DNA of 32,000 nucleotides, from positions 150,001 to 182,000 of the forward strand of contig BAAFHK010000003.1 of the NCBI GenBank assembly GCA_042852035.1, read 5' to 3'. This DNA is from Candidatus Saccharimonadota bacterium (lineage in GTDB: Bacteria; Patescibacteriota; Gracilibacteria; BD1-5; UBA2023). Positions 3,980 to 30,047 of this stretch are shown here, piece after piece; the first letter of the stretch is position 1, and the number at the start of each line of letters is the position of its first letter. The position numbers and the translations under genes are program-made. Below the pieces are notes generated by a model. It saw only the letters and a program-made list of their open reading frames with translations, was not told where the DNA came from and ran no database searches.

Positions 3980-4594
3980 CTATAAAAGTCTTCAGAGAAT
4001 ATTTGTTCGAATATTCTCATAATCTGTTGATATTATCATCAAATGATTCATGATTTCTCACTCAAGTAGCATTTGTTCTGCGGTCTTTGTATCAATTCCA
4101 TGAGATTCAAGGTAAAAAAGTTTTTCCCCTGATATTTCATGCACCTTGCAAGAATGTCATCATTCGATACTATCGGTCCCAACTTCAAGTACAGGTCTCC
4201 CTCGAACTTTTGCACCTTTTCCAAGAAGAATATTCGTCTGATCAACTCTGAGTTTTACTCATTCGCACCCATTTTTTACGATTCATATTCCATCAATCTC
4301 AATGTTTGATCATCATTTCGCCAATCAAAGGAGCTGAAGAGAGGCTTCGGAATTTGATCATTGTATTGAAACGAACATTTTTAGAACCATATTTGCTCAT
4401 AATACAATAGCCCCTCATCGGAATACGGCTCACTCCTCCAGACAAAAATGACGCTCATACACACCCTCAACCTCTGGGACAAATAGATATTTCTGACATT
4501 CGTTTTTCCCGATATTGAAGGATAAACTTGATACATCTCACCTATCGAAAATATGTGGAAGATGATGGACGATTTTTGGGTTATCACATTGCAT
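3980..4594 (-). CDS. sufD: SufD-like Fe-S cluster assembly protein (short form, 204 aa)
   Basis: The C-terminal half reads ...VDQTNILLGKGAKVRGRPVLEVGTDSIEGGHSCKVHEISGEKLFYLESHGIDTKTAEQMLLEGEI. This matches the SufB/SufD beta-helix signature (Q.N.LL...A.....P.LEI..DDV.C.HG......E.LFYL.SRGI....A..ML). A full-length SufB lies elsewhere in the window, so this is the D-type partner. The start at ATG 4594 is uncertain. Confidence 0.6.
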
Positions 4595-4616
4595 ATGGCG
4601 AAGTATAGACAGAGAA

Positions 4617-4666
4617 GGGAAAATGGCAAAAGGAAATCTTTGGGAAAATGGCAAAAGGAAATCTTT
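4617..4666. repeat. perfect 25-bp tandem duplication gggaaaatggcaaaaggaaatcttt x2 (4617-4641, 4642-4666), plus a degenerate third copy to ~4686
   Basis: The repeat was read directly from the sequence. It sits in the 114-bp divergent spacer between the sufD-like start (4594, -) and the ATPase start (4709, +). The unit length is not a multiple of 3. Confidence 0.9.
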
Positions 4667-4693
4667 GGAAAAATAGAAGAAATTTGATATTAT
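4665..4693 (+). promoter_or_regulatory. sigma70-like promoter candidate: TTGGAA (4665-4670), 17-nt spacer, TATTAT (4688-4693)
   Basis: The -35-like hexamer is formed by the 3' end of repeat copy 2, and copy 1 carries the related ttggga. An AAGGA string lies 6 nt before ATG 4709. Confidence 0.3.
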
Positions 4694-4708
4694 ACACAAA
4701 AGGAATAC

Positions 4709-7129
4709 ATGTCCCATAATCATCACTACATTACCTACGAAGTTGCTGTCGATCGAGCCAATGAAAAATGAGTATTTGTCGCTCGCGAAATGCTCTCCAC
4801 TCTTCATCATGCCGTTGAACATATACGTCCATGGTGGAAAATATGGGAAAAGAAAATTCACCCTGTATTTCGTTTTGAAATAGTTTCATCAGGAGGGCAG
4901 ATCCATTTTTATTTCACTGCAGAAAAATCATTTTCTTCATTTCTTACGAGTCAACTCTATGCTCATTATAGTGACATTGAGCTACTTGAAGTAGAAAATA
5001 GAGCATTCCCCCTATGACCATTTCGTACTCGAGAAATACAGATTTCTCACCACTCACTTGAGAGTATTAAGTTTTATGTAAATCTTAAAGATCGAACTGA
5101 AAAAGAATCTGTCGACCCACTTTCTTCACTCACGAGCGCACTTTCAAAAACTCCAAAAGATGAATATGGAGCATATATTATTGATTTTGGACCTGTAGAA
5201 GATCGGATATGGAGATACGAATCTCATCGAATAATATGGGATTCTCACATCATCCCTTCCTTTGCAAAAATGCACCTTCTGCATTTATGGTCATGGATTG
5301 GGTGGATGTTTCTTCCACTAAGTTGGTCACGGAAGATTATAGATTTTCTTTCCCCCGGGGAAGATGATGGTCATAACTCTCATGATGAGCACGATAAACC
5401 CACAAAAGTAGAAACAAAATCTGAGGGTTATGGATACCAAGTGCAAATACGGGTAATCAAAGATCAAAAGAACACTCTTCAAGACGAAGTTCTCCTCAAA
5501 GAGTTTGCGGGTGGGATGAATATTTTTGCCAACCCAAAAGGAAACCATTTCGAAATGAAGCGATCGAAATCAATCGACACTATCCCAACACTGAGAAAGC
5601 TTCCAACAAAATCCATGATTCTCTCATCAACAGAGCTCGCTGGACTTGTTCATATGCCAACACTCTATGTAAAAACTCCTGGAATTCGTTGGGTAACTAC
5701 AAGAAAATTTGAACCCCCTCATAATCTGCCAAGCGTTGAATCTCCAAATACACCTATCGGAATGGCAAATTACCGAGGAAGTTTAGAGTGATTCTGACTT
5801 AAGCCCATTGATCGTGCTCGACATGTCTATATCATAGGAAAAACTGGGATGGGAAAATCAACCCTTCTTGAGAATATGATCTATACGGACATTTTAAATG
5901 GACGTTGAGTAGCCGTTATCGATCCACATGGCGATCTTGTCGAAACGATACTGGCAAATATTCCCAAGTCTCGTACGAATGATATTGTTCTTTTTGATCC
6001 TGCCGACCAAGAATATCCGATTGCATTCAACATGCTTGAAAACTCGAGACCAGAGCTTCGACCCATTGTTGCCTGAGGACTTGTGTCGATATTTAAGAAA
6101 ATGTTTGCTGAAAGTTGGGGACCCCGACTTGAGTATATTTTACGAAACACAATTCTCACTCTTCTTCTGATTCCAGACACAACAATGATATCTATTCCTC
6201 TCATGCTTACCCATGAGGCGTATCGAAGAAAGGTGGTATCGAAGATTGATGATCCGATTCTGGTTCAATTCTGGAATGAAGAGTTCGCTAAGATGAGCCC
6301 GAGCATGCAGAGTGAATCAATTAATCCAATTCTCAACAAGGTGGGCCAATTTCTCTCTTCTCCCATACTTCGAAATATTCTCTGACAACCAAAAAATCCC
6401 TTTTCTCTACGTTGGATAATGGATAACTGAAAGATTTTTTTAGTGAATCTCTCAAAATGAAGAATTGGCGAAGATGCAAGCGCCCTACTTGGTGCAATGA
6501 TGGTAACAAAATTTCAGATAGAGGCAATGACCCGAGCTGATATTCCCGAAGATCAAAGAAGAGATTTTGGACTCTATGTCGACGAATTCCAGAACTTTGC
6601 CACCGACTCATTCGCCACGATTCTCTCAGAAGCGAGAAAATACAAGCTCTCACTTACGATGGCGAACCAATATGTCGAACAAATGGCAGAAACCGTACAG
6701 GGTGCGGTTTTCGGGAATGTTGGATCGCTTATTGCATTTCAGGTTGGGTACCACGATGCTGTTACTTTTGCGGAAGTTTTTGGTGGCGAAGATGTCATAA
6801 CTCCTCAGGATCTTACGAATCTTAAAAAATATGATATTTATACAAAACTTCTTATTGATGGTATGCCCTCACCCGTCTTCTCGGCTACAACGTATGCACC
6901 TCTGAGAGAGCGCATAGAAGTTCCACCCCAACAGACTCGCGACGTACTCCAGAAAGTTTCTCGTGAAAAATATACAAAGAAAAAGGATTTCGTAGAGAAA
7001 AAGATCTTTGAAAATGTAACAAAAATTCGTGAAGAAGAAAAAAAATTCCGTGAAGAACAAGAAGCTTATAAGGAAAAAAAGAAAGAGGAACGAGAGAGGG
7101 AAAAAAAGAAAGAAAAAGAAAGTAATTAA
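4709..7129 (+). CDS. VirD4/TraD/TraG-family (T4SS coupling-protein-like) P-loop NTPase, paralogue 1, with an uncharacterised ~340-aa N-terminal domain and a K/E-rich tail
   Basis: The 806-aa product is rebuilt from 5 same-frame ORF fragments joined by 9 TGA codons. Motifs are Walker A HVYIIGKTGMGKST, VIDPHGDL, Walker B-like FGLYVDEFQNF, and EARKYKLSLTMANQY (TraG-D_C-like). The C-terminal tail is KIREEEKKFREEQEAYKEKKKEEREREKKKEKESN. Without an HMM search I cannot exclude a VirB4/HerA-type assignment. Confidence 0.8.
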
Positions 7130-7218
7130 AGCTACTGCTGATAAGCTAAAATATCTCATGACACTGAATTTTGCTTTTTCTAAAATATAGAGTAAAGTAC
7201 GTTTATTAACCTCAGTAT

Positions 7219-8190
7219 ATGCTACGACTTCTTGCTCTCTTCGGAATACTTCTTCTTCCATTTTCTCTCTTTGCAGCAAATCAAGGAGATCCAAATCTAC
7301 GAAATCCTGCGAATGTTAAAGTTGATGGGAATATTAATGATGATTTGGCAACATTTTGAGCTCTAAACAATATATTTGATTTCTTTATTAGTCCGACATT
7401 CTCGGGTGATGCCGTCGAAAATTCATTTGTAAATATTGCCTGAGCCATAAAAAACTTCTTTATTCTTATAGCGGTTATTTTTCTTATTGTCGGAATCGTA
7501 AAACTCCTCTTTCGTAGTGGTGAGGAAGAAGATATGAAAAAATGGAGGCATAATATTATCTATGTATCTGTAGGTATTTTTGTTATGCAAATAGGCTACT
7601 CTGTATGGAAAACTCTCTATTTGAATACAAACTATTCATGACTTTTTGTAGACGGAAGGGTCGGATGGCTCTTTTGGAATAATATTCTCCTTCCCATCGT
7701 AAATATTATGTTTGTCCTCGCATCACTTGGATTCCTTGCGATGGCAGTATACGCCTTTTATATGCTTGTAACTGCGAATGGAAATGATGAAAAAGCAAAA
7801 AAATGAAAGAATGTTGTTCTTTATGCTATAGTTTGATTTCTTCTTATCCGAGTACCTATACTTTTTGTCCCCGCTATATACGGTGAACCTGACAATAATT
7901 GTAAAAATGTTGGATGGATGAACGTTTGAACTTGTGCTCTCACAAGCAAAAATCTTCCAGATGGAGTTAATATTTTTGGGAAGATCCTTACGTATGTTTC
8001 TACTTTTCTCGCACTTATAGCCGTTGTACTCGTGATATATGCTGGTTGGCTTATATTTAGCTCTGGAGGAGATGAAGAAAAACTCAAAAAGGCTAAATCA
8101 GTCCTTCTCTATGTTGTTATTGGTTTTGTTGCCCTTATTGCAAGTCACGTAGTATTTCGATTTTTCTTCCTTGGAACAGCAGGAGCATAG
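7219..8190 (+). CDS. membrane protein built from three tandem T4SS-pilin (VirB2/TrbC-like) helical-hairpin modules, with an N-terminal signal peptide
   Basis: 323 aa with signal-like MLRLLALFGILLLPFSLFAANQ. The unit 'hydrophobic helix - S/T/N-G-x-D/E-E-K..KK - hydrophobic helix' occurs three times: ...IFLIVGIVKLLFRSGEEEDMKKWRHNIIYVSVGIF, ...AVYAFYMLVTANGNDEKAKKGKNVVLYAIVGFLLI and ...VLVIYAGWLIFSSGGDEEKLKKAKSVLLYVVIGFVAL. The third copy is closest to the CPR T4SS_pilin pattern. Confidence 0.6.
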
Positions 8191-8235: not shown

Positions 8236-10665
8236 ATGACTCAAGAGGAGCTCATCGTCGTTATTTCGATTGCACTCATCGTAATAATTCTCTTCTATAT
8301 CTCCACTCGTCGTCGCATTGCATTTCGACGGTCTCTGGAGATGACTTTTTTGCGTGTTATTATAGCAAGAAAAGATAGCGATCAAGATGAAAAAAAGGAG
8401 ACCGTTAAAGACTTTCGGGAACAGATATCTATCATGGAACAGCTCCTTGCGAGTTTGAAATCCCTCTATTCAAGTACAGCAATAGGTTGGCTTTTTGGGC
8501 AGGAATATATTTCCCTTGAGTATGTGGCTCATGAGCAAGAAATCTATTTCTATATTGTTGTACCAAAGCACTCAAAACTTCTTGTTGAAAAACAGGTTCT
8601 TGGGTTTTATCCCGATGCTCTTATCGAAGAAACGAACGAAATAAACATTTTCGAAGGAAAAAAGGTTGTCAGGGGGGAAATCATGAAACTCAAAAAGCCG
8701 TATGAATACCCTATTAGAACCTACCAAAAACTTGAATCAGATCCGATGAATGGGATTCTTTCAGCGTTTTCAAAACTCAGAGAAGATGAATCGAGCGTTA
8801 TACAGATACTTTTACGTCCGGTTGATGATGATTGGCAGGAAAGAATTAAAAAACATATTCGGAAAACGGAAAAGAAGCATACTGGGATACATCTTTCCTG
8901 GAACCCCCTTCATTGGATTGGATTAATCTTTGATCTTTTCACTCGAAATGATAAAGAAGATCTTCATAGCACTGAAGAAAAAGATGGAGAAGATCCAATA
9001 GACGAGGATGGTCTGATGAAAGAGAAGGTAAAAAAGACTGGATATACCGTATCTATTCGGATTCTCACCACAGGAAATGATGACGATGCTGTTTATGCTG
9101 AACTACAAAATATTATTTCGGCATTTTCTCAGTTTACTTCCCCCGCATATAATAAATTCAAGCCTGTAAAACGAAAATCCCTTTCAATTCTTATTCGACA
9201 TTATATTTTCAGGCAATTTGCTTGGTGGCAAAGAAACAGCATTATGAACAGCGAAGAACTCGCTACCTTGTTTCATTTTCCACATAATAAATACAACAAA
9301 CAACCAGAGATTCGTTGGCAGCGTTTCAAGCTCATAAAGGCACCGACAAATATTCCCAAAGAGGGGCTCTATATCGGAGAAAATAATTTCCGAGGCGAAA
9401 GAAAGCCAATTTATGTGAAAAATGAAGATCGATTTCGTCATTTTTACGTTATTGGGCAAACAGGTACGGGAAAATCATCCATACTCTCAGTAATGGCAAG
9501 GCAAGACGTACGATCTGGAAAATGACTCGCCATGCTTGATCCTCATGGTGACCTTGCGAGAGAACTCATCGGATATATCCCAAAAGATAGAGCAGATGAT
9601 GTGGTCTACTTTGACCCTGGCGATCTTGCTCGTCCAATGGGACTCAATATGCTTGAAGCAGCAAATGAAGACGAGAAACAAATGGTAGTAGCTGATGCTA
9701 CTAATATCATGATAAAGCTTTTTGGAAATGAGATTTTTGGACCTCGTATCCAAGACTATTTCCGAAATGGGTGCCTCACTCTTATGGACTACCCTCAATG
9801 AGGTGCTATTACTGATCTCGTACGACTTTTTACTGATGAAAACTTCCAAAGAGAACGCCGAACAACTCTAAAAAATGCCGTTGTGCGAGCATGGTGGGAC
9901 TATACTTATGCAAAAATGGGGGAACGAGAAAAGTGAGAGATTATCCCATACTTCGCAGCAAAATTTGGTCAGTTCATCACGAATACAATGATGCGCAACA
10001 TCGTTGGACAAACAAAAAGTGCCTTCGATGTAAGTGAGATTATGAATCATGAGAAGCTCCTTCTTGTATCGCTTTCAAAGGGTATTATCGGTGATCTCAA
10101 CTCAAATCTTCTTGGCCTTATACTCGTTTCAAAGATTCAAATAGCAGCCATGCGTCGACAAAACATGGCAAAAGAAGATCGTAAAGATTTCTTTCTTTAT
10201 ATCGATGAATTCCAAAACTACATTACTGATTCGATTGAGTCTATCCTTTCTGAGGCACGTAAGTATCGACTTTGACTCGTTATTGCGCACCAATATCTAT
10301 GACAATTAGAAAAATCTGATGCTCTTACGAAATCGAGCCTCAACCTTAAGGGGGCAATATTTGGTAACGTTGGAACGGTTATGAGTTATAAACTTGGACC
10401 TGAGGATGCTGAATTTATGGCAAAACAATTTGCTCCCGTCTATTCTGAACAGGATTTTGTAAATATGGATAAATTTAAGGCGGCTATTAAACTTTCAGTC
10501 GATAGCCAACCAACACCAGGATTCTCTATAGCTCCTCCAAACCCATTTCTTGAGGTTCCAGATACAAAAACAGGTGCCGCCCTGAAAGAACTTTCCCGAC
10601 TTAAGTATGGCCGAGAAAGAGAGTTTGTTGAAAAAGAAATCATTTATCGTGTCGGAGCTAACTAA
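8236..10665 (+). CDS. VirD4/TraD/TraG-family P-loop NTPase, paralogue 2, with an N-terminal TM helix and the same uncharacterised N-domain
   Basis: The 809-aa product is rebuilt from 4 same-frame fragments joined by 5 TGA codons. The N-terminal TM is LIVVISIALIVIILFYI. Motifs are Walker A HFYVIGQTGTGKSS, MLDPHGDL, FFLYIDEFQNY and EARKYRLG(TGA)LVIAHQY. It is collinear with paralogue 1 over the whole length, including ELA.L.H.P and W.W/HWIG motifs in the N-domain. Confidence 0.8.
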
Positions 10666-10672
10666 TTCGCTT

Positions 10673-11650
10673 ATGAAGTATACACTCCCCCTCATCGCGA
10701 TAGTCACAGTTATTCTAGGTCAGATAGCCTATGCCGATGATCCAAAATTCGACTGTGATGTGAGAACCTACTCTTGTTATGAAAAGCATGTAGAGAACAT
10801 TTGTAATGCGAGAGATGAACCCTTTAAAAGTCAGTGGTGATCTTGACCCGATCTTTGAGCCCTAAAATCAATTGCCTCTTGTAAATATCCAGAACTTGAT
10901 AAAGATAAGATCAATAACACTATACGCTGTATTGAAACGCTTGAGCAGTCTGATTCAACTGCTCTCCAAGATGGCGTAAGCATGAGCTCCATGGGGGCAT
11001 CGAATTGATTTCGAATTGCCGAACTTTCAAGACTTATGTACCGGAGAAACATGAATAGCATATTCGCCTGTTGAGTGATTGCGAGTCGTTATTCGAAGCT
11101 CGATTCTCTCAATACAATTCTTATTGGAAAGCAATGATCTTCTGAGATTCAAGAAAGCATCAATAAAGAACGGAAGCGATATGAAACCTTAAAAAACCAG
11201 ATGAGTTGTGATCAAAATAGGCCTGCCAATAGCTCAACAGGGGTAGTAGAACGACTCATGAAAAGTAGCATGAAAGAATATTGTAAATACACTTACTACC
11301 TTGATTATGTTGATGCAAATTTAAGAGAGAACTTTGATGCTATCTCAAAACTTGATACAAAAATAGGAGATAATAATAGCTCAAAATCAGCATCAACAAC
11401 AAATGATGCTCAGAAGGAAATCATTTCACGTGGAAGGTTTGTGGAGGACGAAAGAAAGCGAGCCAACGAAGTACTCCCAAAAGCCATAGTTGCATTTCAA
11501 GAAATGGATCGAACATATGTTATTCATATAATGCTCACATTCCTCTATGATGACTACCTAAAACTTCGAGATCAACTCAATATTTATCTCACAACGATAG
11601 GGCAAACATTTGAAAAAGCATTTAATGCACAAGACGATAATCAAAGATAA
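10673..11650 (+). CDS. secreted Cys-containing hypothetical protein (signal peptide, 8 Cys)
   Basis: ATG 10673 lies 8 nt after the ATPase-2 stop, in the same frame as ORFs 10607.. and 11201.., joined by TGA codons. The N-terminus is MKYTLPLIAIVTVILGQIAYADDP, followed by FDCDVRTYSCYEKHVENIC. 325 aa. No family recognised. Confidence 0.6.
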
Positions 11651-11653
11651 CAA

Positions 11654-11685
11654 TAAAAAAACTCGCCATATGGCGAGTTTTTTTA
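11654..11685. terminator. bidirectional rho-independent terminator
   Basis: Perfect palindrome actcgccatatggcgagt (11661-11678) flanked by an A-run on the left and a T-run on the right. It lies between the convergent stops at 11650 (+) and 11686 (-). Confidence 0.8.
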
Positions 11686-11904
11686 TTATTTATTGAGAGT
11701 TTCAGTCTTTTTCTGACGAGCATAGAACTTGTCGACAGAACTTGTTTTAAGAAGAGTTTTCTTTCCAGTATAGAATGGATGACACTTAGAGCAGGTTTCT
11801 ACACGAATTTCTTCGTCCTTAATACTACTCATTGTCTCGAACTTATTTCCACAAGAACAAACAACTTGTACTTTTTTAAACTGTGGGTGAATATTTTTTT
11901 TCAT
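11686..11904 (-). CDS. rpmE: 50S ribosomal protein L31
   Basis: The product [27 protein letters not shown]...[11 protein letters not shown] is the classic L31 sequence with the CxxC...CxxC zinc ribbon. It contains no TGA. Confidence 0.9.
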
Positions 11905-12046: not shown

Positions 12047-12131
12047 TGGTGCCCAGGAAGAGACTTGAACTCTTACACCGTAAGGCAACGGCTTCTAAGA
12101 CCGTCGTGTCTACCAATTCCACCACCTGGGC
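12047..12131 (-). tRNA. tRNA-Leu (anticodon UAG), class II with long variable arm, CCA encoded
   Basis: The reverse complement folds as acceptor GCCCAGG/CCTGGGC, anticodon stem ACGGT/GCCGT with loop CTTAGAA, and T arm AAGAG-TTCAAGT-CTCTT, ending in ACCA. Confidence 0.9.
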
Positions 12132-12143
12132 AGACATTTTGTA

Positions 12144-12228
12144 TGGTGGGCCGGGAGGGATTCGAACCCCCGAAGGCGAAGCCAAAGGATTTACAGTCCT
12201 CCCCATTTGACCACTCTGGTACCGACCC
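12144..12228 (-). tRNA. tRNA-Tyr (anticodon GUA), long variable arm, CCA encoded
   Basis: The reverse complement is GGGTCGG...GAGGA-CTGTAAA-TCCTT...GGGGGTTCGAATCCCTC-CCGGCCC-ACCA. The acceptor contains one G-U pair. Confidence 0.9.
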
Positions 12229-12239
12229 ATATACAAAAA

Positions 12240-12315
12240 TGGAGCCACTTATCAGACTTGAACTGATGACCGTCGGTTTACAAAACCGATGCTCTACCAA
12301 CTGAGCTAAAGTGGC
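12240..12315 (-). tRNA. tRNA-Thr (anticodon UGU), CCA encoded
   Basis: The reverse complement is GCCACTT TA GCTC AGTTGGTA GAGC A TCGGT TTTGTAA ACCGA CGGTC ATCAG TTCAAGT CTGAT AAGTGGC T CCA. Confidence 0.9.
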
Positions 12316-15092: not shown

Positions 15093-16508
15093 TTAGAGTC
15101 ACTCCATTTCCATTCCGATAAGTATATTCATCTCTGCAGCATATTCGAGAGGAAGCTCTTTCATTAAAGGGGAAACGAATCATCTGACGATAAGTGTTTT
15201 TGCTTCATCTTCTGGTATACCATGAGAAAGAAGATAAAAAAGAACATCTTCATTTATCTTTCCAACGCTCGCTTCATGGGCCACAAGTGCATCATCTGAA
15301 GCAACACGAATATCAGGGATTGTGTCAGAGCGAGAATTTTTATCGAGGATAAGACCATCACAGTCAATCTTTGCGACAGCACCGGTTGCTGATTTTTTTA
15401 TATCGAGGAGTCACCGATATACTGAAATTCCCCCATTTTTCGAAAGGCTCTTTGAAATAACCTCACTCGAGGTATGTTTGCCAATATGGATAACTTTTGC
15501 TCCCGTATCAGTATTTTGTCAGGAATTTGCAAATGCAATACCATAATGTAAGGCCCGAGATCTGTCTCATTTGAGAACCGAGCATGGATAAAGCATAGTA
15601 ACTCAAGAACCAAGATTTCCACCAACCCACTCGATGGATCCTCCTTCTTCTACAAGGGCACGTTTTGTATTGAGGTTATAGGTATCTATTGACCAATTTT
15701 CGACACTCGAGTATCGCATTCTTGCGTTCTTCCCCACATATATCTCTACGCAGCCCGCATGAAGACTTGCTGTACCGTATTTCGGAGCACTACAACCCTC
15801 GATATAATGAGCTTCAGCATCATCTTCAACAATAATTAAAGTATGCTCAAATTGCCCACCTGCTTTTACGTTCATTCGAAAGTACGCTTGAAGTGGATCA
15901 GTGATTTTCACGCCCTTAGGGATATAGAGAAATGTTCCCCCACTCCATACCGCTCCATGGAGGGCCGCGAACATGTGATCACTATTTGGCACCACTCTCA
16001 TAAAGTGCGATCGTACCAATTCTTCATGTTCGATTATTGCTACTGACATATCTTCAAATATGACTCCAAGATTTTTGAGCTCCTCTCTGAGATTGTGGTA
16101 TACGACTTCACTGTCATACTGAGCACCGACTCAAGCAAGCATGGCACGTTCAGCCTCAGGGATTCAGAGTCGGTCAAAGGTAGATTTAATCTTTTCAGGA
16201 ACTTCATCCCATGATTTTGAATCTCATGCACCCTCAGGCTTGGCAAAGTAGTAAATAGATTCTAGATCAAGGAGATCTAATGAAGGTCACCAAGTTGGCT
16301 TTTTAAAAGAGCGATATAGTTCAAGTGACTTGAGTCTCTGCTGAAGCATCCAGTCAGGCTCCTTATTCGAAATGGATATCTGACGTACGACTTCTTCATC
16401 AAGTCACATCTTGGCTATCTGCGAATATACGATTGTATCACTCGAATCCAGCGTTTTTCTTGATATATCGCCAAAGGCTTGAATGTCATCTTGTGGGTTT
16501 TGAGGCAT
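15093..16508 (-). CDS. sufB: Fe-S cluster assembly protein SufB
   Basis: 471 aa. The product reads MPQNPQDD...YYFAKPEGAG...HGAVWSGGTFLYIPKGVKI...QFEHTLIIVEDDAEAHYIEGCSAPKY...GKHTSSEVISKSLSKNGG...ALVAHEASVGKINEDVLFYLLSHGIPEDEA...LIGMEMEGL. I checked codon by codon from 15093 to 15605 and found no in-frame TAA/TAG. Confidence 0.9.
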
Positions 16509-16520
16509 TTCTAATGAAGT

Positions 16521-17255
16521 TTAAAAACCATTCTTCCGAATATCATCTATTAGGGCTTGTTCGCCATGTCGATGAATTTGTCAAGAACTCATAATTACTA
16601 CTTCATCGACATTAATAGTGTCGAGTAAATGAAAATTATGAGAAATAATGATAACAACTTTTGACATACTTCGCCATTTTTGTATTTGCTTTGAGAGGAT
16701 TTCAAGCGCTCCGATATCGAGACCCGAATCGATTTCATCAAGGAGGATAAGTTTCGGATCAAGGAGGGCGATCTGAAGCATCTCTATTCTGCGTTTTTCT
16801 CAACCAGAGAAACCAACATAAAGATCTCTATCAAGAAATTTTGAATCGATTCCATATTCTGGAAGAAGCTTCTCCACCATTCTTCGAAAGACAAATGGAG
16901 TTGGAGCCTTTTCACCTGGATGACTCTTCTCAAATGAATGATTATATATGGTGCGAAGGTACTCTATAAGGCGGATACCTGGTATTTCTGGTACGTTTTG
17001 GAATGAGAGAAACATACCCCTTTCTGAGAGAATATTTGGCGTGAGATTACTCAGAGATTCACCGAGAAAGAGCGCTTCTCCTTCTATTGAATAACGTGGG
17101 TGATGAAACAGTGCAAAAGCAAGTGATGACTTTCCACTTCCATTTTTTCCGAGAAGAGCATAGATTTTGCCTCATGAAAATGAAAATGTAAAATCATTGA
17201 CTATGGTTTTTTCCTCTACCGTAACAGATATGTGAGAAAGTTGAAGCATGCGCAT
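16521..17255 (-). CDS. sufC: Fe-S cluster assembly ATPase SufC
   Basis: Motifs are Walker A LLGKNGSGKSSL, ABC signature FSGG(TGA)EKRR, Walker B LILLDEIDSGLD and H-loop IISHN. 244 aa, with the stop 12 nt before the sufB start. The start could instead be the second ATG at 17249. Confidence 0.9.
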
Positions 17256-17326
17256 ATGATAAGAAACTCAAAGAGAAATGCAAATTTTATTCGAGAAAGA
17301 TTCTCATTATACAGAATACACAAACC

Positions 17327-17352
17327 AAAAACCCCACACATAAAGTGCGGGG
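17327..17352 (-). terminator. rho-independent terminator after the S-layer gene
   Basis: The minus-strand sequence reads ccccgcac-tttat-gtgtgggg followed by ttttt, ~40 nt downstream of the TAA at 17389-17391. Confidence 0.7.
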
Positions 17353-17388
17353 TAAGTGGCAAGAGATCAATTCTCGGAAGAGAAAAGA

Positions 17389-20277
17389 TTATTGAGCAGA
17401 AGCTGTATAATCTTCAGTAGTACCAGTATTGTAAGTAATCTGGAGAACTTCACCAAGAAGATTAGTAGGATCTACGAAGTCTGAATCAACAAGGATCTCA
17501 TAAGAGTAAGTACCACCATTCTTAGAAAGAGTAGGGTAGCTTGCAAGAGTGAGGTTTGTTGCAGCACCAGGAACAGCACCAGTACTTGTAGAAGTAGAAG
17601 CTTCTGGACAAGTAGAAACGCTAGAACCTTCAGCGCGGAGACAGTAAATAGCCTTATATGAAGAGTTGTTATCTGCAACTGGTTTTACACGAGCCTTAAT
17701 AGCTTCGAGTTGAACAGTTGAATCAGAGTCAACGTTAGTTACCTTAACGAGGAAGACCTTAGCAGACTTCTTAGTAAGAGTAACAGTTGGAGGAACAACA
17801 CCAGTAACATAGTTAGTAGTATTTACTGAAGCAAGAGTAGTAGGAGCTCCTGAAGCAGAACCACCAGAAGACTTGTCTACAGTGTCAAGAGTAACACGAA
17901 GATCAACTGCCTTGTTGTGTTCAGCAGAAGAGAATGAAGTAGTAGTAGCAACTACCTTAAGGTTACGAGTTGTATCCTTAGTAACTTCAGCACTCATATT
18001 GTCGAAGACAATAGAACCTGTAGTAGTAACAGTAACTGTAGCAGAAACTTGAGAGTTAGTAGCAACATCAACGAGTTTTACATTGTTACCAGAAACGATT
18101 GTTGTCCAATCGCTTACACCACCACTTCCAGGAAGGACAGCGTTAGTAACAGTAAGCTTACGAAGAGTAAGGTTCTCAGCTTGAGCTTCTACTGCAAAGC
18201 GTCCGATTTCGAGATCAGCACTAGAGTAGATGCGGCGAGTTGAAGGAGGAGCAACAGTAGCATCCTTAAGGATTACTGTACCACTCTTCACAGTTACCTT
18301 ATCACCAGCTTGTGACTTAGTAACGCTAGAAGTAGCACCGTTAGAAACGTTTCGAAGTTCAGAAATAGAGAATGTAGTAGTATAGTCTACTGGAGTGTAA
18401 GCGTTAGACTTAAGATTTCCAACAACACGAACTGTTACAGGAACACCTGGCTCAACGCGGAATCGGTCTGCAGTAGCAGTCCAGTTCTTTGTAGAAGTAG
18501 TAGCTCCGGCTGTAGAGTTAGAAAGTTCGTAGTCTACACCATTGATGTAAACAGTAACCTTGTTATCAGAGAATGAAGAAAGTCCGCTTGCACTTGAGTG
18601 TGAAGCAACGATTTGAAGAGTATAGTTAGATACGTCGAATGTAGCATCAGAAGTGATAGTCGCCTTGTAGAGTTCTACGGCGCTTGCACCTGGAGCAACA
18701 GTAGCTGTACCAGTAGAAGTCTTCGTAATAGTAAGATCAACAGCATTAAGATCAAGATCTTTTTGAGTAGTACTTGAGTAACCAGATACCATCATAGCAT
18801 AACCTGTAGTCTTTTCAGTTGCTGAAACATCAAAAGATGAATCTACCTTAAATGAAGTCTTCGCTGGAGCACCAACGTAGATAATGTCAGCGCGGAGCTC
18901 AACAGAAGCTTGTTCTCCAGAGAGACGAGCAATGTTAAGACCAGTAACAGTAAGCTTATCAGTAGAAAGAGTAACTGTACCTACCTTAGCACCGTTGAAG
19001 TATGCTGAAACATTAGCAAACACCTTAGTGTAATCTTCACTACCAGTACCCTTAGTAAGAGTAAATGAGTTAATAACTGCATCTTTACCAGATGGAGTAA
19101 GCTTAACTGTATTGAAGAGTTGGTTAGACTTACCTGAAGTAACAGAAGCAGGAGTTCCACCAAATGAATCTACATTAACTGTACCAACTGTATAAGAAGT
19201 AGTGTTAAGAAGACCAAGAGTAACTGGAGCACCGGCAACAGTAGCACCATTAAGAGCAGTAACAGAAGTTACAGCAAATTGGTGTTGGTTGTTCTCAGCA
19301 CCAGAAAGGCTAACGAGAACATCTACAGAAGCAGAAGTACCAGCCTTCAGAACGAGGTTGTTAGTGAACTTAAGTGTAGCTGACTGAGATGAAGTACTCA
19401 TAGAGCGAGCATCAGAGAGAGCAACACCGTTCTGAGTAAGTTGAACTGATGAAATATCAGCAGCATTACCAAGACCAGAACGAGAAACAACGAGTGAAGA
19501 AACAGTTACATCAGCAGCACCAGCAGTAAGCTTAACAGATCCAACCTTAACGCTAGAAGCGTTCTTTGGAACGTATTGAGCCATAGCTGTACCGTCGAGA
19601 GCAACAGTAACAGATCCACCTGTAGAAGTAGTACCAGATGATGATGTACCTGTACCAGTACCACCATCAGTAGGTTCGTCTACAACAACATCGAGACCAG
19701 CACAGATAACTGCAACCTTAAATGCTTCACCACGAGATGATGATGCATTTGGGCGGAAGTAAGATGCATCAGAGATACATCCAATCTCGTTAGCGCGGTT
19801 AACGTATGATGCAAGATCACCAAGACCAGTAAGGTCCATGTAACCAGCGTCAACATCAGAACCGACTTCACCGAGAGCACCGAGGATCATTTTGACCATC
19901 TCAGCACGAGTTACATTCGCATTTGGGCGGAATGTAGCAGAAGAAGTAGATACAACTCCAGCGTCAGCAAGAGCTTCAACGTATCCACAGAGATCACCAA
20001 GACCAGAACCAACGTCTGAATATGTCGTACCAGAACAAGCAACAGGGTCGATACCACCGAGGTTCGCGACGACCTTTGCGATCTCAGCACGAGTGACGTT
20101 ATCACCGAGACGGTAACCAGCCTCACTAGACTGAGCTGTAATTACACCGTTGTCGGCGAGCGTTTCAGCGTAAGGGAGGAACTCAGAAGCAGCAGCAACA
20201 AGTGATGCACTTGTAGAAACCGCTACGAGAGTAGCTGCCCCCATAACTGAAGTGAGCTTCGTAAAGAAGTTACTCAT
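17389..20277 (-). CDS. SLH-domain cell-surface (S-layer-type) protein, 962 aa
   Basis: The signal peptide is MSNFFTKLTSVMGAATLVAVSTSASLVAAA. Three SLH-like repeats follow (...YRLGDNVTRAEIAKVV..., ...FRPNANVTRAEMVKMIL..., ...FRPNASSSRGEAFKVAV...). Next comes a G/T/S linker, then ~700 aa of T/S/V/A-rich beta-type sequence. The ORF is uninterrupted even under the standard code. Confidence 0.8.
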   Translation of the reverse strand: MSNFFTKLTSVMGAATLVAVSTSASLVAAASEFLPYAETLADNGVITAQSSEAGYRLGDNVTRAEIAKVVANLGGIDPVACSGTTYSDVGSGLGDLCGYVEALADAGVVSTSSATFRPNANVTRAEMVKMILGALGEVGSDVDAGYMDLTGLGDLASYVNRANEIGCISDASYFRPNASSSRGEAFKVAVICAGLDVVVDEPTDGGTGTGTSSSGTTSTGGSVTVALDGTAMAQYVPKNASSVKVGSVKLTAGAADVTVSSLVVSRSGLGNAADISSVQLTQNGVALSDARSMSTSSQSATLKFTNNLVLKAGTSASVDVLVSLSGAENNQHQFAVTSVTALNGATVAGAPVTLGLLNTTSYTVGTVNVDSFGGTPASVTSGKSNQLFNTVKLTPSGKDAVINSFTLTKGTGSEDYTKVFANVSAYFNGAKVGTVTLSTDKLTVTGLNIARLSGEQASVELRADIIYVGAPAKTSFKVDSSFDVSATEKTTGYAMMVSGYSSTTQKDLDLNAVDLTITKTSTGTATVAPGASAVELYKATITSDATFDVSNYTLQIVASHSSASGLSSFSDNKVTVYINGVDYELSNSTAGATTSTKNWTATADRFRVEPGVPVTVRVVGNLKSNAYTPVDYTTTFSISELRNVSNGATSSVTKSQAGDKVTVKSGTVILKDATVAPPSTRRIYSSADLEIGRFAVEAQAENLTLRKLTVTNAVLPGSGGVSDWTTIVSGNNVKLVDVATNSQVSATVTVTTTGSIVFDNMSAEVTKDTTRNLKVVATTTSFSSAEHNKAVDLRVTLDTVDKSSGGSASGAPTTLASVNTTNYVTGVVPPTVTLTKKSAKVFLVKVTNVDSDSTVQLEAIKARVKPVADNNSSYKAIYCLRAEGSSVSTCPEASTSTSTGAVPGAATNLTLASYPTLSKNGGTYSYEILVDSDFVDPTNLLGEVLQITYNTGTTEDYTASAQ

Positions 20278-20585
20278 AATAAGATATGGGTAAAAAAGTA
20301 AAAAGCGGTAAAACCGCGTATGTAAAAGGGTTGATAACTCTGGTCAGGAGCTATCGATTTGGAACTCTTGGTCAGAGAGATTCCGCCTTTCCCAAGACGA
20401 AGTCAAGAGAGAGGTTAAAGCTTTAACCTCAAGTTATTTGCATAACGAGAGGAAAAGAAAGAAATTTTTGTAGTCTAAATATCCGTCTTTTCCTCTCCTC
20501 ATACAAGAAACATTGAGTGACCAAAAGATATGAAACAAACAAGATGTTAAAGAACATCGGCGATGAAAATCGCAAATTACGCGCT

Positions 20586-20614
20586 CATAATATGAATAGT
20601 GAGCTCTAAAGTCA
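20586..20614 (-). promoter_or_regulatory. sigma70-like promoter candidate on the minus strand: TTGACT, 17-nt spacer, TATTAT
   Basis: The reverse complement of 20609-20614 is ttgact and of 20586-20591 is tattat. This would give a ~300-nt leader for the S-layer gene. Confidence 0.3.
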
Positions 20615-20854
20615 AATAAAAGTAGGTTCTCTTCACCTTATTTTCACTGCGGAAAATCACAAGCCTAGAAGAGCGCAAATAATCAAGTCATGAGTTTTCT
20701 TTTCTGGGAAAGAGCTAGAAAGGAAATTCAGAAAAAATAGTTCCATTTTCCCAAAAAAAACCTACAATACACATACCATCGACAAAACAACTACATAAAA
20801 CATGCGAGAAGAGAAATGTCGATGTGCTAATTACATTATCATCAAACTCATAAT

Positions 20855-22369
20855 ATGCCAATCCCTGCTCTGCTTACCCTCATCGTATGATGAGTTTTTG
20901 GTGCTGGTCTTATGTATTTCATTTCTTTGAAAAAAAAGGATGCTGTTGCTGGTAAAATCATAAAAGAAGCTGAAGATAAGGCGAAAGAAATAACAAACGC
21001 CGCCTACGAATCAAAAGAACAAACGAAAAAAGAAATTGAAGAAGCAAAAAATGATCTCAAAAGTCGAAGAGACAGTATTACTGAAAGCGAGGAAAGACTC
21101 CTCGAAAAAGAAAAAAGACTCGATGCAAAATTTGAGGAAATTGATGCAAAAAGAGTTGCACTCGTAGATAAAGAACGCTCACTTGAAGATAAAATTCAAA
21201 AGGCGGATGAAAAATCACGAGAACTTGCAGGAAAACTTGAAGAAATGGCAAAACTTTCTCAAGATGAAGCAAAAAATCTCTTACTCCAATATACTGAGGA
21301 AAGATATGAGAAAGATATACTTACTCTTATAGAAAAAAAGAAAAAAGAACTCAAAAGTCGAGAACTTGATGCTGCTCGAGAAATTCTCATTAAAAGTATC
21401 CAGCAATATGCATGAGAAGTTACAGGAGAAACAACCCAAACTCTCGTTACCCTTGAAAGTGATGATGTAAAGGGGAAACTTATTGGAAAAGAAGGTCGCA
21501 ATATTATTGCGTTCGAGAAGGCAACCTGAGTATCCCTCATCATCGATGATGCCCCAGATACGGTCTTTCTTTCGAGTTTCGACCTCTTCCGCAGATATAT
21601 CGCGAAAAAGTCACTCGAAGATCTCATCGAGGATAAACGAATCCAACCAGCAAGAATTGAGGAAATCGTGGAAAAAAATCAACAAGATGCTGACCGGCTT
21701 ATTACTGATCTTGGCCGAAAAACGGTCGAGGAAATGTGAATCATTGGCATTCCTGATGAAATACTCCCGCTTATAGGAAAATTTCGATTCCGAACAAGTT
21801 ATGGACAAAATATTCTCATGCACTCAAAGGAAGTTGCCTACATTGCAGAGGCTATAGCAAAACTTATAGGTGCAGATGCTACTCTTGCACTCAAAGGATG
21901 ACTCCTCCATGATCTCGGGAAAGCAATGGATCACGATATCGAAGGAACTCATCCCGAAATTGGTGGTCGCATCGCAAGAAAATATGGTCTTGATGAGAAA
22001 ACTATCAATATTATCGAGGGCCATCATGATGATGTTCCGCAGATATGTATTGAGACAAAGATTGTGCAAATCGCTGATGCTATTTCTGCAGTGAGACCAG
22101 GGGCACGAAGAATGAATGTTGAAGACTATATCAAGCGCATTCAAGAAATGGAAAACATTGCCATGAGCTTCCCTGGCGTTGCCAAGGCTTATGCCCTCTC
22201 TGCTGGAAGAGAAATACGAGTGTTTGTCGATGCCGATACCGTTTCTGATCTTTCCGCTGAAAAACTCGCACAAGAAGTAGCGGGACAAATCGAAGCCAAC
22301 TGCAACTATCCTGGTGAGATTAAAGTTATTATTTTCCGAGAAAAAAGGATCGTTGAATATGCAAAGTAG
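20855..22369 (+). CDS. rny: ribonuclease Y (N-terminal TM, coiled coil, KH and HD domains)
   Basis: 504 aa. The product reads [23 protein letters not shown], then a K/E-rich coil, the KH motif [16 protein letters not shown], the HD motif KGG(TGA)LLHDLGKA...H..IG and IIEGHHDD. It is rebuilt from 3 same-frame fragments. Confidence 0.9.
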
Positions 22370-22435: not shown

Positions 22436-23257
22436 ATGTTTCCCACGATAAACATATTCTCGATACAAATATATACCTTTGGCTTTATCATTGCCATAAC
22501 ATGGCTTCTTTTTATATGGCTCCTTCATAGATTTTCACAAAAAAAGTGAATTATTCGGCCAGTTTTTGGAGATATCGCTACTTTTACTATTTCTCTGTTA
22601 TTCTTTGGTCGAATCTTTCACATACTTGCTGATTGGGTAAATGAAAAGTTTATATTTTGATACCTATTTCAGGGAGATTTTATCGAATTTTTTCGACAGT
22701 TTTTTACCCCTCCAGACTATCTTTTTTCACTGTTCGGTGGAATATTTGGGTTTATGCTCGTCTTTTACATCAAAACCCGTCACCAAATTGAAACCCGCCC
22801 GAAGTATCTCGAATCGATTGTTTATGCATTTCTTTGAGCGAGTATACTTTGATACTTTTGAACCCTTTTATGAGGCCAAATATACGGGATTCCTTTTGAT
22901 TCGTTTATATCAATCTCATACACACATCCTGATTCAATTGTGAAAGATAGTGTTCCCCTGTTTCCTTTGCCACTCTTTTACATATTTTTTATTATAGTCA
23001 TTCTATTCGGTCTGCGTCATATATCGAAGAGGCACCATCTCCCTGATGGATTTATTGGATATGTTTGAGTCGGTTTCTTTTCCCTTATTGTTTTTTTCTG
23101 AGAATTCCTTAGCGGAACAAGGGATGATATATTTTACGACTTAGTTATTCGCCTTACACACTGATACTTTTGACTCAGTCTGAACCAAATAGGGTCGCTT
23201 ATAGGTATAACTTTAAGCATGCTATGAATTCTGAGAATTACAGAAAAGGATTTATAA
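22436..23257 (+). CDS. lgt: prolipoprotein diacylglyceryl transferase-like membrane protein
   Basis: The 273-aa polytopic protein is collinear with Lgt blocks: GRIFHILADW, FSLFGGIFGFMLVFYIKTR, LGASILGYFGTLLGGQIYG and PDGFIGYVGVGFFSLIVFFGEFL. The track ORF 22641..22943 lies in a different, non-coding frame. Confidence 0.7.
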
Positions 23258-24780
23258 AGAATCCTAGAAAAATATTCTTATCAGGAGTGGTTCTTTTTAT
23301 GGCTTGAGATATACTATGAATTCTCCATGAGAGCTTTATTTTGTGGGGACTCATTGTAGTATGAGTCATCTTGATATTCTTCTGGGAATGAAAAAGGGGA
23401 TTCATTATATCCCTTTTTTTAGTGGCAATCTTGGCTATTTGATATTTTCTTTGAGGTGCTTCATATGAAAACAGATACAAGGATTACAGGGGGATTTTCG
23501 ATAAGACAAACGGATTTACGTATCAATGATCCATAGAAGGTACAATTATAAAAATCCTTTACAGAAAGGAAAGATCTGTGATATACTTACTAAACTTCGA
23601 CAACTTCGACAACTTCGACAACTTCGACAAAAATTATAAAAGGCCTTTTCCAGAGGGAAAAATGAGTATAAACGTATGATGACGATGAGATACGATATTT
23701 ATCGAAGTCCCTTCGAATTTATCAATATACCCATGAGATAGAATAGTATTTCATTGAAGAATCCAAGCGCTTCTAACATTCCCTCTCGTTGGATATCACA
23801 AGTATGCCTTCTTCCACGGATGATATGGATATGCTTTTGTGCCTCAATTTGAGGTTATTAAAAAAGCTCAACCATCGGTATTTACAAGATTTCAAAATAA
23901 GTGGGAACATCTCTTTAAAAAGTCATTTCCCAGAGAGGTTTCCGGAATTGCCCTTGGTATGACCATAGGATCAACGAAACACCTTACAGAAGAGGTAAAA
24001 GATAGTTTTCTCCTCAGTGGGATTACTCACATTCTTGTAGTGAGCTGATCAAATATAGCCTTTCTCATACTCGTCATAACTGTATTAACAAGATACCTTT
24101 ATTTTCCAAATTGGTTGAACTCAACAGTAATAGTATCTTGCATAGTATTGTATGTCTGTATTGTTGGTTGAGAAATTCCCGTTCTTCGAGCAACAATGAT
24201 GGGAATTCTTTGATACCTTATTGCAAGTTCATGATTAAAAACATCTGGAAGAGCCCTTTTCTGATTGGTTCTACTGATATTAACGGTTATTGAACCACTT
24301 TCACCACTCTATGATGCCGGATATTGACTCTCTTTTGGAGCAACCCTAGGAATAATTGTATTTCAGGGGCAGGCGAAAAACTTTCTTAAAAAATATCACA
24401 TTCCCGAAAGTATTACGGTTGGTATTTCTCTCACTATTGGTGCAACACTCGGTTCAATTCCTATACTTCTCTACCACTTTTGAACCCTTCCTGTATACAG
24501 TCTTATTACCAATATCATTATTTCTTGACTGCTTTGATGGATTCTTTTATCAAGTACGATTTTTTGAAGTATTGCACTCATATGATTCCCCTATTTAAAA
24601 TACCTTTGAATTTTAGTATATATTCCAATAAAGATTATTATTTATATCGCCTGAATTTTTAGCACCTGACCAATACTCACTTTGCAATGAGAATATGCAC
24701 ATATAGCATCTCTTTTTATTCTTTGAGCTATAGTATATTATTTCTTATTTGAGGAAGAATGAAGCTTATATTCAGAATAG
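23224..24780 (+). CDS. comEC: DNA internalisation channel ComEC/Rec2, short form (N-terminal TM + OB-like DUF4131-type region + Competence domain, no metallo-beta-lactamase domain)
   Basis: 518 aa. The product reads MNSENYRKGFIKNPRKIFLSGVVLFMAG..., ...IYPGDRIVFHGRIQAL...YHKYAFFHGGYGYAF... and ...ALGMTIGSTKHLTEEVKDSFLLSGITHILVVSG(TGA)SNIAFL..., which is the Competence-domain core, followed by multiple TM helices. It overlaps the lgt 3' end by 34 nt. Confidence 0.8.
23593..23628 (+). repeat. perfect 9-bp tandem repeat aacttcgac x4, in frame inside comEC (encodes NFD x4)
   Basis: The repeat was read directly from the sequence. It lies in frame 1 of comEC between LYRKERSVIYLL and KNYKRPFPEG. Confidence 0.9.
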
Positions 24781-28680: not shown

Positions 28681-28682
28681 TT

Positions 28683-30044: not shown

Positions 30045-30047
30045 ATC

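Follow-up and report, generated by a model that had tools for sequence, protein, structure and literature searches.

What kind of protein carries three pilin-type helical hairpins in one chain, and what might it do in the envelope of the bacterium that makes it? This question is raised by a gene at 7219-8190 of a 32,000-nucleotide stretch of a gracilibacterial contig (BAAFHK010000003.1, positions 150,001 to 182,000), hereafter called the window, in which the original prediction had recognized three fused hairpins of the type found in the VirB2-like pilins of type IV secretion systems (T4SSs). Recent reviews have picked out the VirB2-like pilins of monoderm Patescibacteria as one of the most intriguing novelties in T4SS research (PMC12857230). 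We found that the gene encodes a three-hairpin member of the VirB2/T4SS_pilin family that occurs class-wide and is encoded with ATPases resembling the type IV coupling protein (T4CP). Its domain architecture, internal repeat, conservation, genetic code and gene neighbourhood were established directly, and we consider below which assembly they might point to.

Three pilin-type hairpins in a gene that reads UGA as glycine

When 7219-8190 is read with genetic code table 11, it is broken by six in-frame stops, all of which are TGA. We tested the meaning of UGA on a codon-aware alignment of 77 orthologous tri-hairpin genes. In the 35 alignment columns with three or more TGA codons, GGN occurs 1,116 times among the remaining codons and TGG four times, and across the alignment 72 TGA codons fall in Gly-dominated columns and none in Trp-dominated columns. 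Because TGA alternates with GGN, and not with TGG, among the orthologues, UGA is glycine in this gene family, and the window comes from a genome of the Gracilibacteria type. The open reading frames (ORFs) that table 11 calls at this locus, fragments of only 46 and 52 aa, were dropped after this codon test. The four strings quoted from the product by the original prediction (RSGEEEDMKKW, TANGNDEKAKKGK, SSGGDEEKLKKAK and NNCKNVGWMNVGTCALT) are all found in the 323-aa translation, in which TGA encodes one G of TANGNDEKAKKGK and one G of NNCKNVGWMNVGTCALT. In the window as a whole, ORFs of at least 100 aa add up to 4,545 aa under table 11 and to 18,580 aa under table 25, and standard-code gene calling would fragment nearly every gene, the tri-hairpin gene included. 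UGA is a sense codon throughout the window (1-32000); for example, glyA (25504-26739, minus strand) has 13 in-frame TGA codons and era has six.

The claim that a unit of two hydrophobic helices joined by a charged turn occurs three times in this chain was borne out by profile searches, by comparison of the modules with one another and by structure models. First, the Pfam family T4SS_pilin (PF18895) matches the whole protein in three stretches with 65 bits (E = 6.5e-18), and each module, searched alone with the hidden Markov model (HMM), exceeds the gathering cut-off of 26.6 bits (Table 1). NCBIfam family NF045849, the Mbov_0395 pilin-like conjugal transfer protein, also matches three stretches, with 57.7 bits against a cut-off of 40; this score is a sum over three copies of an 80-position model and denotes resemblance of the modules, not membership of the equivalog. 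The TrbC family (PF04956) gave at best E = 0.06, for module 1. Second, the three modules are mutually 25-30% identical, with inter-module BLASTP E values of 2e-5, 6e-10 and 1.4e-11, and hhalign comparisons between module profiles built from 65 homologues agree (probability 97.9-99.2%, E 4e-13 to 8e-20). Third, AlphaFold2 (AF2) was run on two homologues, P0001 (91% identical, with W at the UGA codons) and the NCBI homologue P0030, and both models contain three long helix-turn-helix hairpins, with helices at about residues 62-98 and 103-133, 145-185 and 188-221, and 244-281 and 284-318. In one model the six helices span 65-98 and 103-133, 146-185 and 190-221, and 246-281 and 286-318, and the second shows the same pattern. 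The helices have pLDDT values of about 80-90, and confidence is low in the linkers. Over the whole models, pLDDT and pTM were 73.5 and 0.49 for P0001 and 75.3 and 0.56 for P0030. Judged by their sequence families, the modules belong to the VirB2/TrbC pilin superfamily (T4SS_pilin).

Could these HMM matches arise instead from hydrophobic composition, the product being a generic six-transmembrane (six-TM) protein or an artefact of stop readthrough? The per-module Pfam scores near threshold would fit this explanation, as would the lack of a match to any solved pilin and the presence of the G-D-E-E-K turn in de novo designed hairpins of the PDB. However, the glycine meaning of UGA was shown directly, and the ORF is kept at 39-91% identity in about 100 full-length homologues. 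Two independently curated libraries, Pfam and NCBIfam, give pilin-like families in three stretches each, relatives of the protein bridge to TrbC/VirB2 with E values down to 1e-42, and the linkage to T4SS-type ATPase genes is independent of composition. A match to a known six-TM transporter, which would have told against the pilin assignment, was sought among Pfam families and Foldseek PDB folds, and none was found; the Pfam scan gave in this respect sub-threshold, composition-type matches only (MatE 15.4 bits, Tetraspanin 15.7 bits). We regard a non-pilin identity as highly improbable. As for the designed proteins, the best PDB profile matches, 8qag and 8qai, are de novo designed single-chain coiled-coil barrels, and we rejected them as a coincidence of design rules rather than homology. 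Because the turn of designed helical hairpins and barrels in the PDB, helix-GD(E/K)E-helix, resembles the natural one, the G-D-E-E-K turn is more plausibly a generic tight helix-capping turn than a motif for specific binding.

The three modules (m1, m2 and m3) are diverged and individually recognizable. The predicted signal peptide has the usual layout of an n-region, a hydrophobic core (hydropathy peak 2.18) and a small residue at -1, Ala19, which is present in 53 of 66 homologues. Module 1 ends in the conserved motif MQI[AGS][FY]SxW, and its specific profile is kept across orthologues. The turn of module 3 is the best-conserved stretch of the protein, each residue of E286-K293 (EEKLKKAK) being at least 90% conserved. 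The two cysteines that had been noticed in the linker before the third module are likewise maintained, C228 in 61 and C239 in 62 of 66 sequences, together with Y221 (65/66) and P224 (54/66). Each 13-residue turn has four Lys/Arg residues, as compared with 2/19 and 4/45 in the linkers. Given this density and the positive-inside rule, the charged turns (G-D/E-E-E-K..KK) would be cytoplasmic, and with the turns inside and the signal peptide cleaved, both termini and both linkers would lie outside. The predicted topology, with the N- and C-terminus outside and the three turns inside, is the one established for VirB2/TraA pilins, whose termini are outside and whose turn is inside. The cysteine pair C228/C239 would then be on the outer side, between hairpins 2 and 3, and is probably disulfide-bonded. 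An outside N-terminus fits two homologues, P0117 (603 aa) and P0124 (453 aa), which fuse extracellular-type domains, an N-terminal DUF11 with a Pro/Ser/Thr-rich linker or TSP_3 repeats, ahead of m1-m2-m3; these proteins look like an adhesin displayed on a tri-hairpin anchor. About ten further proteins of 450-610 aa match the family profile in their C-terminal part only.

Conservation and gene neighbourhood in Gracilibacteria

How widespread is this arrangement? Among 5.8 billion proteins we found 108 homologues, the full-length ones being mostly 315-325 aa; some are labelled 'Type IV secretion system pilin' (JGI) and some 'hypothetical protein [Candidatus Gracilibacteria]' (NCBI). Short homologues of about 180-250 aa were considered as two-module versions and rejected: the 12 inspected (179-246 aa) are truncations, being either cut off or begun at an internal Met that follows a TGA. 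When one genome per GTDB species was scanned, 104 relatives emerged, and 77 loci were recovered. Nearly all of these loci are labelled Gracilibacteria, Peribacteria or Patescibacteria, four being titled only 'bacterium', and their lineages include human and dolphin oral ones. Our own module HMMs counted three modules, no more and no fewer, in each complete primary copy. With module-specific HMMs, the order m1-m2-m3 was found in 76 of 80 primary genes (one duplicate locus counted), and the eleven most distant loci score 67-98 bits per module. Because count and order are kept class-wide, the triplication predates the radiation of the class, each position having a conserved identity of its own. 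We found no paper on fused pilins; in databases the architecture is common, being the standard form of the gene across Gracilibacteria.

The original prediction also envisaged a survey for one-, two- and three-module forms. One- and three-hairpin forms do coexist, whereas no genuine two-hairpin form was found in the clade. About 11 distant loci have, after the tri-hairpin gene, a second, more generic three-module paralogue and then mono-hairpin pilin genes encoding 114-142 aa (Table 1). No mono-hairpin pilin gene was found in the window or, within 10 kb on either side, in most close loci. A tblastn search of plasmid and phage collections gave no match to the tri-hairpin protein, and nothing points to a mobile element.

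In the window, the gene lies between two ATPase genes on the same strand. ATPase-A, upstream, matches the Pfam families TrwB_AAD_bind (31.8 bits, residues 421-752), DUF87, TraG-D_C and T4SS-DNA_transf, as well as the TrwB structure 1e9r (E = 2.6e-10). Its N-terminal part overlaps a divergent SufBD-core (SufD-like) gene, so that translation may in fact start further downstream. ATPase-B, downstream, matches T4SS-DNA_transf (36.4 bits, residues 361-694) and DUF87 (36 bits) and is 78.6% identical to the product of a neighbour gene in locus L001, for which the precomputed Pfam domains are DUF8128, DUF87 and TrwB. The two window ATPases, with 33% identity over 770 aa, are paralogues. Both begin with an unassigned domain of 400 residues, annotated as DUF8128 on public orthologues. 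In NCBIfam the two ATPases gave weak matches to TraD, VirD4 and CedD (CedD 23-31 bits), and because these are far under the equivalog cut-offs, we call the ATPases T4CP-like and not orthologues of a named coupling protein.

This linkage is general. A homologous T4CP-like ATPase gene directly adjoins the tri-hairpin gene on the same strand in 74 of 80 loci, and three of the six loci without one are at contig ends. Both ATPase copies occur in 14 of the 80, and in those the ATPase-A orthologues are upstream of the tri-hairpin gene. In the window's clade, the order is an optional ATPase-A, the tri-hairpin protein, ATPase-B and a helical, Cys-containing secreted protein of some 320 aa; the distant clade has an ATPase, the tri-hairpin protein and, in some loci, further pilins. 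The secreted protein, here termed p347, has 33 orthologues, always directly 3' of ATPase-B in the window's clade, and comparison with them makes a start at nucleotide 10676 likely. It has several invariant Cys residues and an invariant C-terminal motif, IIYDDYLxLR...SQTFEKAxNAQD, and it matched nothing among Pfam, NCBIfam and PDB profiles. It could be a tip, an adhesin or another structural partner. A strong terminator-like hairpin directly after p347 probably marks the end of the transcription unit, and no comparable hairpin was reported on the plus strand between 7219 and 11650. A promoter-like site lies 33 nt upstream of the ATG of the tri-hairpin gene; such sites are no more numerous in the region than expected from shuffled sequence.

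Elsewhere, the window has an ordinary chromosomal content, with genes for Era, IspH, SufBCD, an SLH-domain surface protein, RNase Y, Lgt, ComEC, an S41 peptidase, GlyA and tRNAs. A tRNA cluster (Leu, Tyr, Thr) lies at 12047-12315 on the minus strand, beyond the terminator-like hairpin. The gene for a ComEC-type competence channel (Competence and DUF4131 domains) at 23170-24780 (plus strand) is 12 kb from the ATPase-pilin cluster and would be relevant if that cluster takes part in DNA uptake. The SLH-domain protein (17389-20406, minus strand) is a Ser/Thr-rich surface protein of 1,005 aa, and a low-complexity Ser/Arg-rich ORF of 981 aa opposite it (17356-20301, plus strand) looks like an antisense artefact. 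The region 28000-31250 is very AT-rich (25-29% GC, against about 38% elsewhere), and two large predicted membrane proteins with no Pfam match are encoded at 28683-30044 and 30048-31250 (plus strand). In L001, a 1.1-Mb Gracilibacteria contig, an SpvB/TcdB/RHS (YD-shell) toxin-like protein of at least 1,738 aa is encoded about 5 kb downstream of the cluster (16272-20960, minus strand).

Table 1. Features of the tri-hairpin locus and of related loci and proteins. Positions are those of the window unless another locus is named.
Feature	Position	Strand	Residues or size	Basis or remark
Tri-hairpin T4SS_pilin/VirB2-like protein	7219..8190	+	323 aa	Genetic code 25 (UGA = Gly)
Six in-frame UGA (Gly) codons	Span 7357..7929 (7357-7359, 7441-7443, 7639-7641, 7804-7806, 7834-7836, 7927-7929)	+	aa 47, 75, 141, 196, 206, 237	Direct translation and orthologue codon comparison
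Predicted Sec signal peptide, MLRLLALFGILLLPFSLFA	7219..7275	+	aa 1-19	Cleavage before A20; sequence reading
External N-terminal segment		+	aa 20 to ~65 (~50 aa)	Predicted
Hairpin module 1, turn RSGEEEDMKKWRH	7414..7614	+	aa 66-132	PF18895 30.6 bits alone
Linker 1		+	aa ~133-147	Between hairpins 1 and 2
Hairpin module 2, turn ANGNDEKAKKGKN	7660..7872	+	aa 148-218	PF18895 27.2 bits alone
Linker 2	7873..7959	+	aa 219-247	Predicted outside cytoplasm; Cys228, Cys239, motif AIYGxP
Hairpin module 3, turn SGGDEEKLKKAKS	7960..8172	+	aa 248-318	PF18895 31.3 bits alone
ATPase-A, VirD4/T4CP-like, upstream of the tri-hairpin gene	4553..7129	+	Up to 858 aa	Pfam and TrwB structure
ATPase-B, VirD4/T4CP-like, downstream	8236..10665	+	809 aa	N-terminal TM helix
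p347, conserved secreted Cys-containing protein, probably helical	10607..11650	+		Likely true start Met at nt 10676
Terminator-like hairpin, bidirectional	11652..11687		16-19 bp stem	Flanking A/T runs; directly after p347
Promoter-like site ATGACA, 17-nt spacer, TAAAAT	7158..7186	+		10/12 matches; weak evidence
Mixed fused/single pilin arrays	L002 9983-13481; also L064-L069, L073, L074, L079, L080			
P0242			3 modules	
P0213			4 modules	
P0192			5 modules	
P0169			7 modules	
P0142			7 modules	Ca. Peregrinibacteria metagenome-assembled genome
P0136			8 modules	
P0216			11 modules	
P0223	L081 10001-15328		At least 15 modules; 1,775 aa	

Intact chain, membrane platform or polyprotein

What assembly might such a gene set form? 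On the reading that we find most likely, a single chain, with a Sec signal peptide and an external segment of about 50 aa, would place three diverged two-helix hairpins in the membrane, as the Gracilibacteria counterpart of the separate-gene VirB2-like arrays of other Patescibacteria. Three paralogous subunits would thereby be locked at a 1:1:1 stoichiometry in a fixed order. The gene would be transcribed together with those for one or two VirD4/T4CP-like ATPases and, in the clade of the window, with that for the secreted helical protein, all belonging to a reduced, chromosomally fixed, T4SS-derived envelope machine. Several intact copies might pack side by side into a VirB2-type tubular assembly, be it a pilus or a short conduit, by means of which the neighbouring ATPase might move macromolecules (DNA or protein) between the bacterium and a host cell. 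We consider the chances about evenly balanced that the intact chain is such a covalent pilin heterotrimer, copies of which associate laterally in a VirB2-type tube or short conduit that the adjacent ATPase serves. Its topology, its non-cleavage, its oligomerization and the transported substrate are all features that we infer. That the chain stays intact is suggested, first, by the conserved linkers, with their two near-invariant Cys residues and the AIYGxP motif, and by the fixed module order. Second, homologues have one N-terminal display domain per three hairpins. Third, the AF2 helices run through the candidate cleavage sites discussed below.

Several points weigh against this tubular reading. 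The single-module PF18895 scores exceed their threshold by just 1-5 bits, and the second helix of module 1 is moderately hydrophobic, under the Kyte-Doolittle cut-off of 1.6. The link to VirB2 rests on HMM families and intermediate sequences, because neither profile nor Foldseek searches recovered a solved pilin: Foldseek of both full-length models against the PDB gave best E values of 0.12-1.0 with TM scores of at most 0.24 and no solved pilin, and PDB profile searches with the whole protein and with a single module recovered no VirB2, TraA or CedA1. The packing between hairpins in the AF2 models is of low confidence (pTM 0.49-0.56). VirB4, VirB6, VirB8, VirB1 and a relaxase were found neither in the window nor in the annotated loci L001 and L002, and canonical VirB/D4 systems use VirB4, not the coupling protein, for pilus biogenesis.

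Some of the same evidence could be accommodated if the tri-hairpin protein stayed in the cytoplasmic membrane as a platform or channel that replaces the missing VirB6-type component, the main alternative, which we take seriously without thinking it probable. VirB6 homologues have been reported to be absent from Gracilibacteria (PMC12102498), and six TM helices are also the number in minimal VirB6 proteins. The near-invariant cytoplasmic turn EEKLKKAK of module 3 is what would be expected of a docking surface for a cytoplasmic partner, and the tight ATPase linkage in 74 of 80 loci also speaks for a platform. Such a platform might be a translocon or an assembly base docked to the ATPase, any fibre being made of separate mono-hairpin pilins; this, too, we think possible though rather unlikely. 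The coexistence of fused and mono-hairpin pilins in about 11 distant loci could indicate that their roles differ. However, each module is a bona fide pilin-family hairpin, and neither sequence nor fold similarity links the protein to VirB6, TrbL or PrgH, which had no match in the Pfam and NCBIfam scans (E <= 1 or 0.01) or among the folds. Moreover, a mono-hairpin pilin gene is missing from the window and from most close loci (10 kb to either side), and it could be elsewhere in the genome.

Alternatively, the chain might be a polyprotein. The -3/-1 rule is the established basis for reading signal peptidase I sites, and by this rule two candidate sites can be recognized, S128-V129 at the end of helix 2 and A219-I220 at the end of helix 4. 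After Sec insertion, signal peptidase I would cut behind the second helix of modules 1 and 2 and release three ordinary mono-hairpin pilins in equal amounts. Each even-numbered helix would have a double role, closing one pilin as its C-terminal helix and acting as export signal for the pilin behind it. The sequence at both sites is compatible with this scheme. Helix 2 ends in MQI-[A/S/G]-[F/Y]-S before xW, with small residues at -3 and -1 (Ser in 59 of 66 sequences), and helix 4 ends in [V/I]-x-A before IYG (Ala in 55 of 66), with a conserved Pro upstream. A K/R-rich turn and a hydrophobic stretch precede both sites, as in the n-h-c layout of a signal peptide, and the products would match ordinary pilins of the candidate phyla radiation in size and layout, such as the mono-pilins of 114-134 aa in L002. 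However, both AF2 models hold the candidate sites within continuous helices, the Cys pair and the other conserved residues of linker 2 exceed the needs of a spacer, and the strict m1-m2-m3 order is maintained class-wide. In addition, relatives with near-identical modules have Gly-rich linkers with no obvious -3/-1 motifs. Cleavage into separate pilins seems to us unlikely, both as a processing route and as a means of making equal amounts.

The class-wide fusion of three diverged pilins is a natural experiment, showing that three different hairpins are required together at a fixed order and ratio. A further implication is that, on the outer face, each hairpin's C-terminus is close to the N-terminus of its successor. 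The fusion also ties a pilin to the coupling-protein-like ATPases that are abundant in these genomes (PMC12102498). The value of the locus thus lies in the constraints that it places on the assembly of VirB2-like units in monoderm ultra-small bacteria, and in this link to T4CP-like ATPases; the mechanism itself is inferred.

Concatenated hairpins in other organisms and in known systems

Has concatenation of this kind occurred elsewhere? The full-length family profile was searched against 1.84 billion representative proteins (clusters at 50% identity), giving 36,071 matches at E <= 1e-3 and 170 at E <= 1e-30. Among the best 150 matches, many are longer proteins with several matched stretches, in which we counted modules by Pfam or by our own HMM (Table 1). 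Chains of 3 to at least 15 hairpins thus counted come from unrelated uncultured bacteria and from one contig that looks archaeal. Several of these multi-module relatives match both PF18895 and the TrbC/VirB2 family PF04956 strongly (E 1e-13 to 1e-42), which ties the group to the classical pilins. Their modules are generic or near-identical to each other and not like m1, m2 or m3, and concatenation therefore arose independently on several occasions. The contig of the longest relative, P0223, also encodes ribosomal protein L39e and a Cas4/Csa1-type gene, which suggests that it is archaeal. No ATPase gene adjoins the P0223 gene within the L081 sequence, and in L082 an 864-aa neighbour of a seven-module protein was checked as a candidate ATPase of the window's type and found not to be one.

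These observations raise the broader idea that concatenated VirB2-type hairpins are the single-chain building blocks of an unrecognized type of T4SS-derived tube, which we put forward tentatively and regard as doubtful. If this idea is true, each chain of the type would hold three hairpins in all Gracilibacteria, and four to at least 15 would be joined in uncultured bacteria of other kinds and on a contig that seems to be archaeal. In Gracilibacteria, the tube would work as a minimal machine consisting of a coupling-protein-like ATPase, a 'poly-pilin' and a secreted protein, independent of VirB4 and VirB6, which would acquire DNA or other macromolecules from the host cell. By fixing which hairpins are neighbours, the covalent linkage would reveal the packing geometry of VirB2 polymers in monoderms.

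Previous work on the T4SSs of Patescibacteria has dealt with separate pilin genes. A survey of 3,035 genomes counted VirB2-like genes by PF18895 and PF04956 and described 441 arrays of 2-11 separate pilin genes with a mean identity of 25%; in the same survey, VirD4-like genes are abundant, mostly away from virB4 and possibly exapted (PMC12102498). In Ca. Southlakia epibionticum, an essential series of predicted pilins consists of separate genes (PMC10633639, PMC12857230), six in number (PMC12857230). A metaproteogenomics paper on Gracilibacteria treats type IV secretion in general terms only (PMC11452946). Fused pilins are unmentioned in the surveys that report separate-gene arrays (PMC12102498, PMC12857230, PMC10633639), and we found no description of concatenated VirB2-type hairpins in the searchable literature, an absence there and not a proof. 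The fused poly-hairpin VirB2-like protein occurs commonly in sequence databases and has, as far as we found, no description in the literature. Surveys that count genes would score the tri-hairpin gene as one pilin.

How does the tri-hairpin protein compare with known systems? Like the VirB2/TrbC/TraA pilins (PF04956, PF18895), it has in each module a hydrophobic helix, a short charged turn and a second hydrophobic helix, and it shares with them an N-terminal signal peptide, termini predicted outside with the turn inside, and adjoining genes for ATPases of the T4SS superfamily. Unlike those pilins, each a single small hairpin of 70-150 aa with its own signal peptide, it has three hairpins in 323 aa behind one signal peptide, so that modules 2 and 3 have none of their own. 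Its host is a monoderm, its partner is a VirD4-like ATPase without a full VirB operon, and solved pilins are not detectably similar to it. The pilin gene arrays of Patescibacteria share the protein family and phylum of the tri-hairpin protein, their loci are likewise chromosomal and without a relaxase, and several divergent paralogues are used together, whose identity of about 25% matches the 25-30% between the modules in the window. In contrast to the arrays, the paralogues here are covalently joined in a fixed order within one ORF and are linked to T4CP-like ATPases, not to virB4. The Mbov_0395 family (NF045849) of the Mycoplasma integrative and conjugative element, our best NCBIfam match, is also a small VirB2-like membrane protein of a transfer system in a monoderm; it is a single hairpin from mobile elements of Mollicutes, whereas the window gene is triple and chromosomal.

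Two further systems offer analogies. In archaeal Ced/Ted DNA import, the VirB2-like pilins CedA1/TedC, which are single hairpins, work with a VirB4/HerA-type ATPase. The likeness to the window, a chromosomally domesticated, reduced T4SS-derived set of an ATPase and VirB2-like membrane proteins, is an analogy of composition only. In A- and V-type ATPases, the rotor c/K subunits are duplicated, triplicated or, in some methanogens, present as 13 hairpins per chain. There is no homology to these subunits, and both the assembly and its function differ. The Pfam scan of the tri-hairpin protein gave no ATPase family, and of ATPase-related PDB entries the module profile matched just V-ATPase subunit c'', without significance (E about 1.3). 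The likeness is that, in both cases, a hairpin subunit of a homo-oligomeric membrane assembly has been repeatedly concatenated, with neighbours covalently fixed. The repeated, independent concatenation of VirB2-type hairpins, up to at least 15 in one chain, recalls the fused rotor subunits and suggests that lateral contacts between hairpins are the functional unit.

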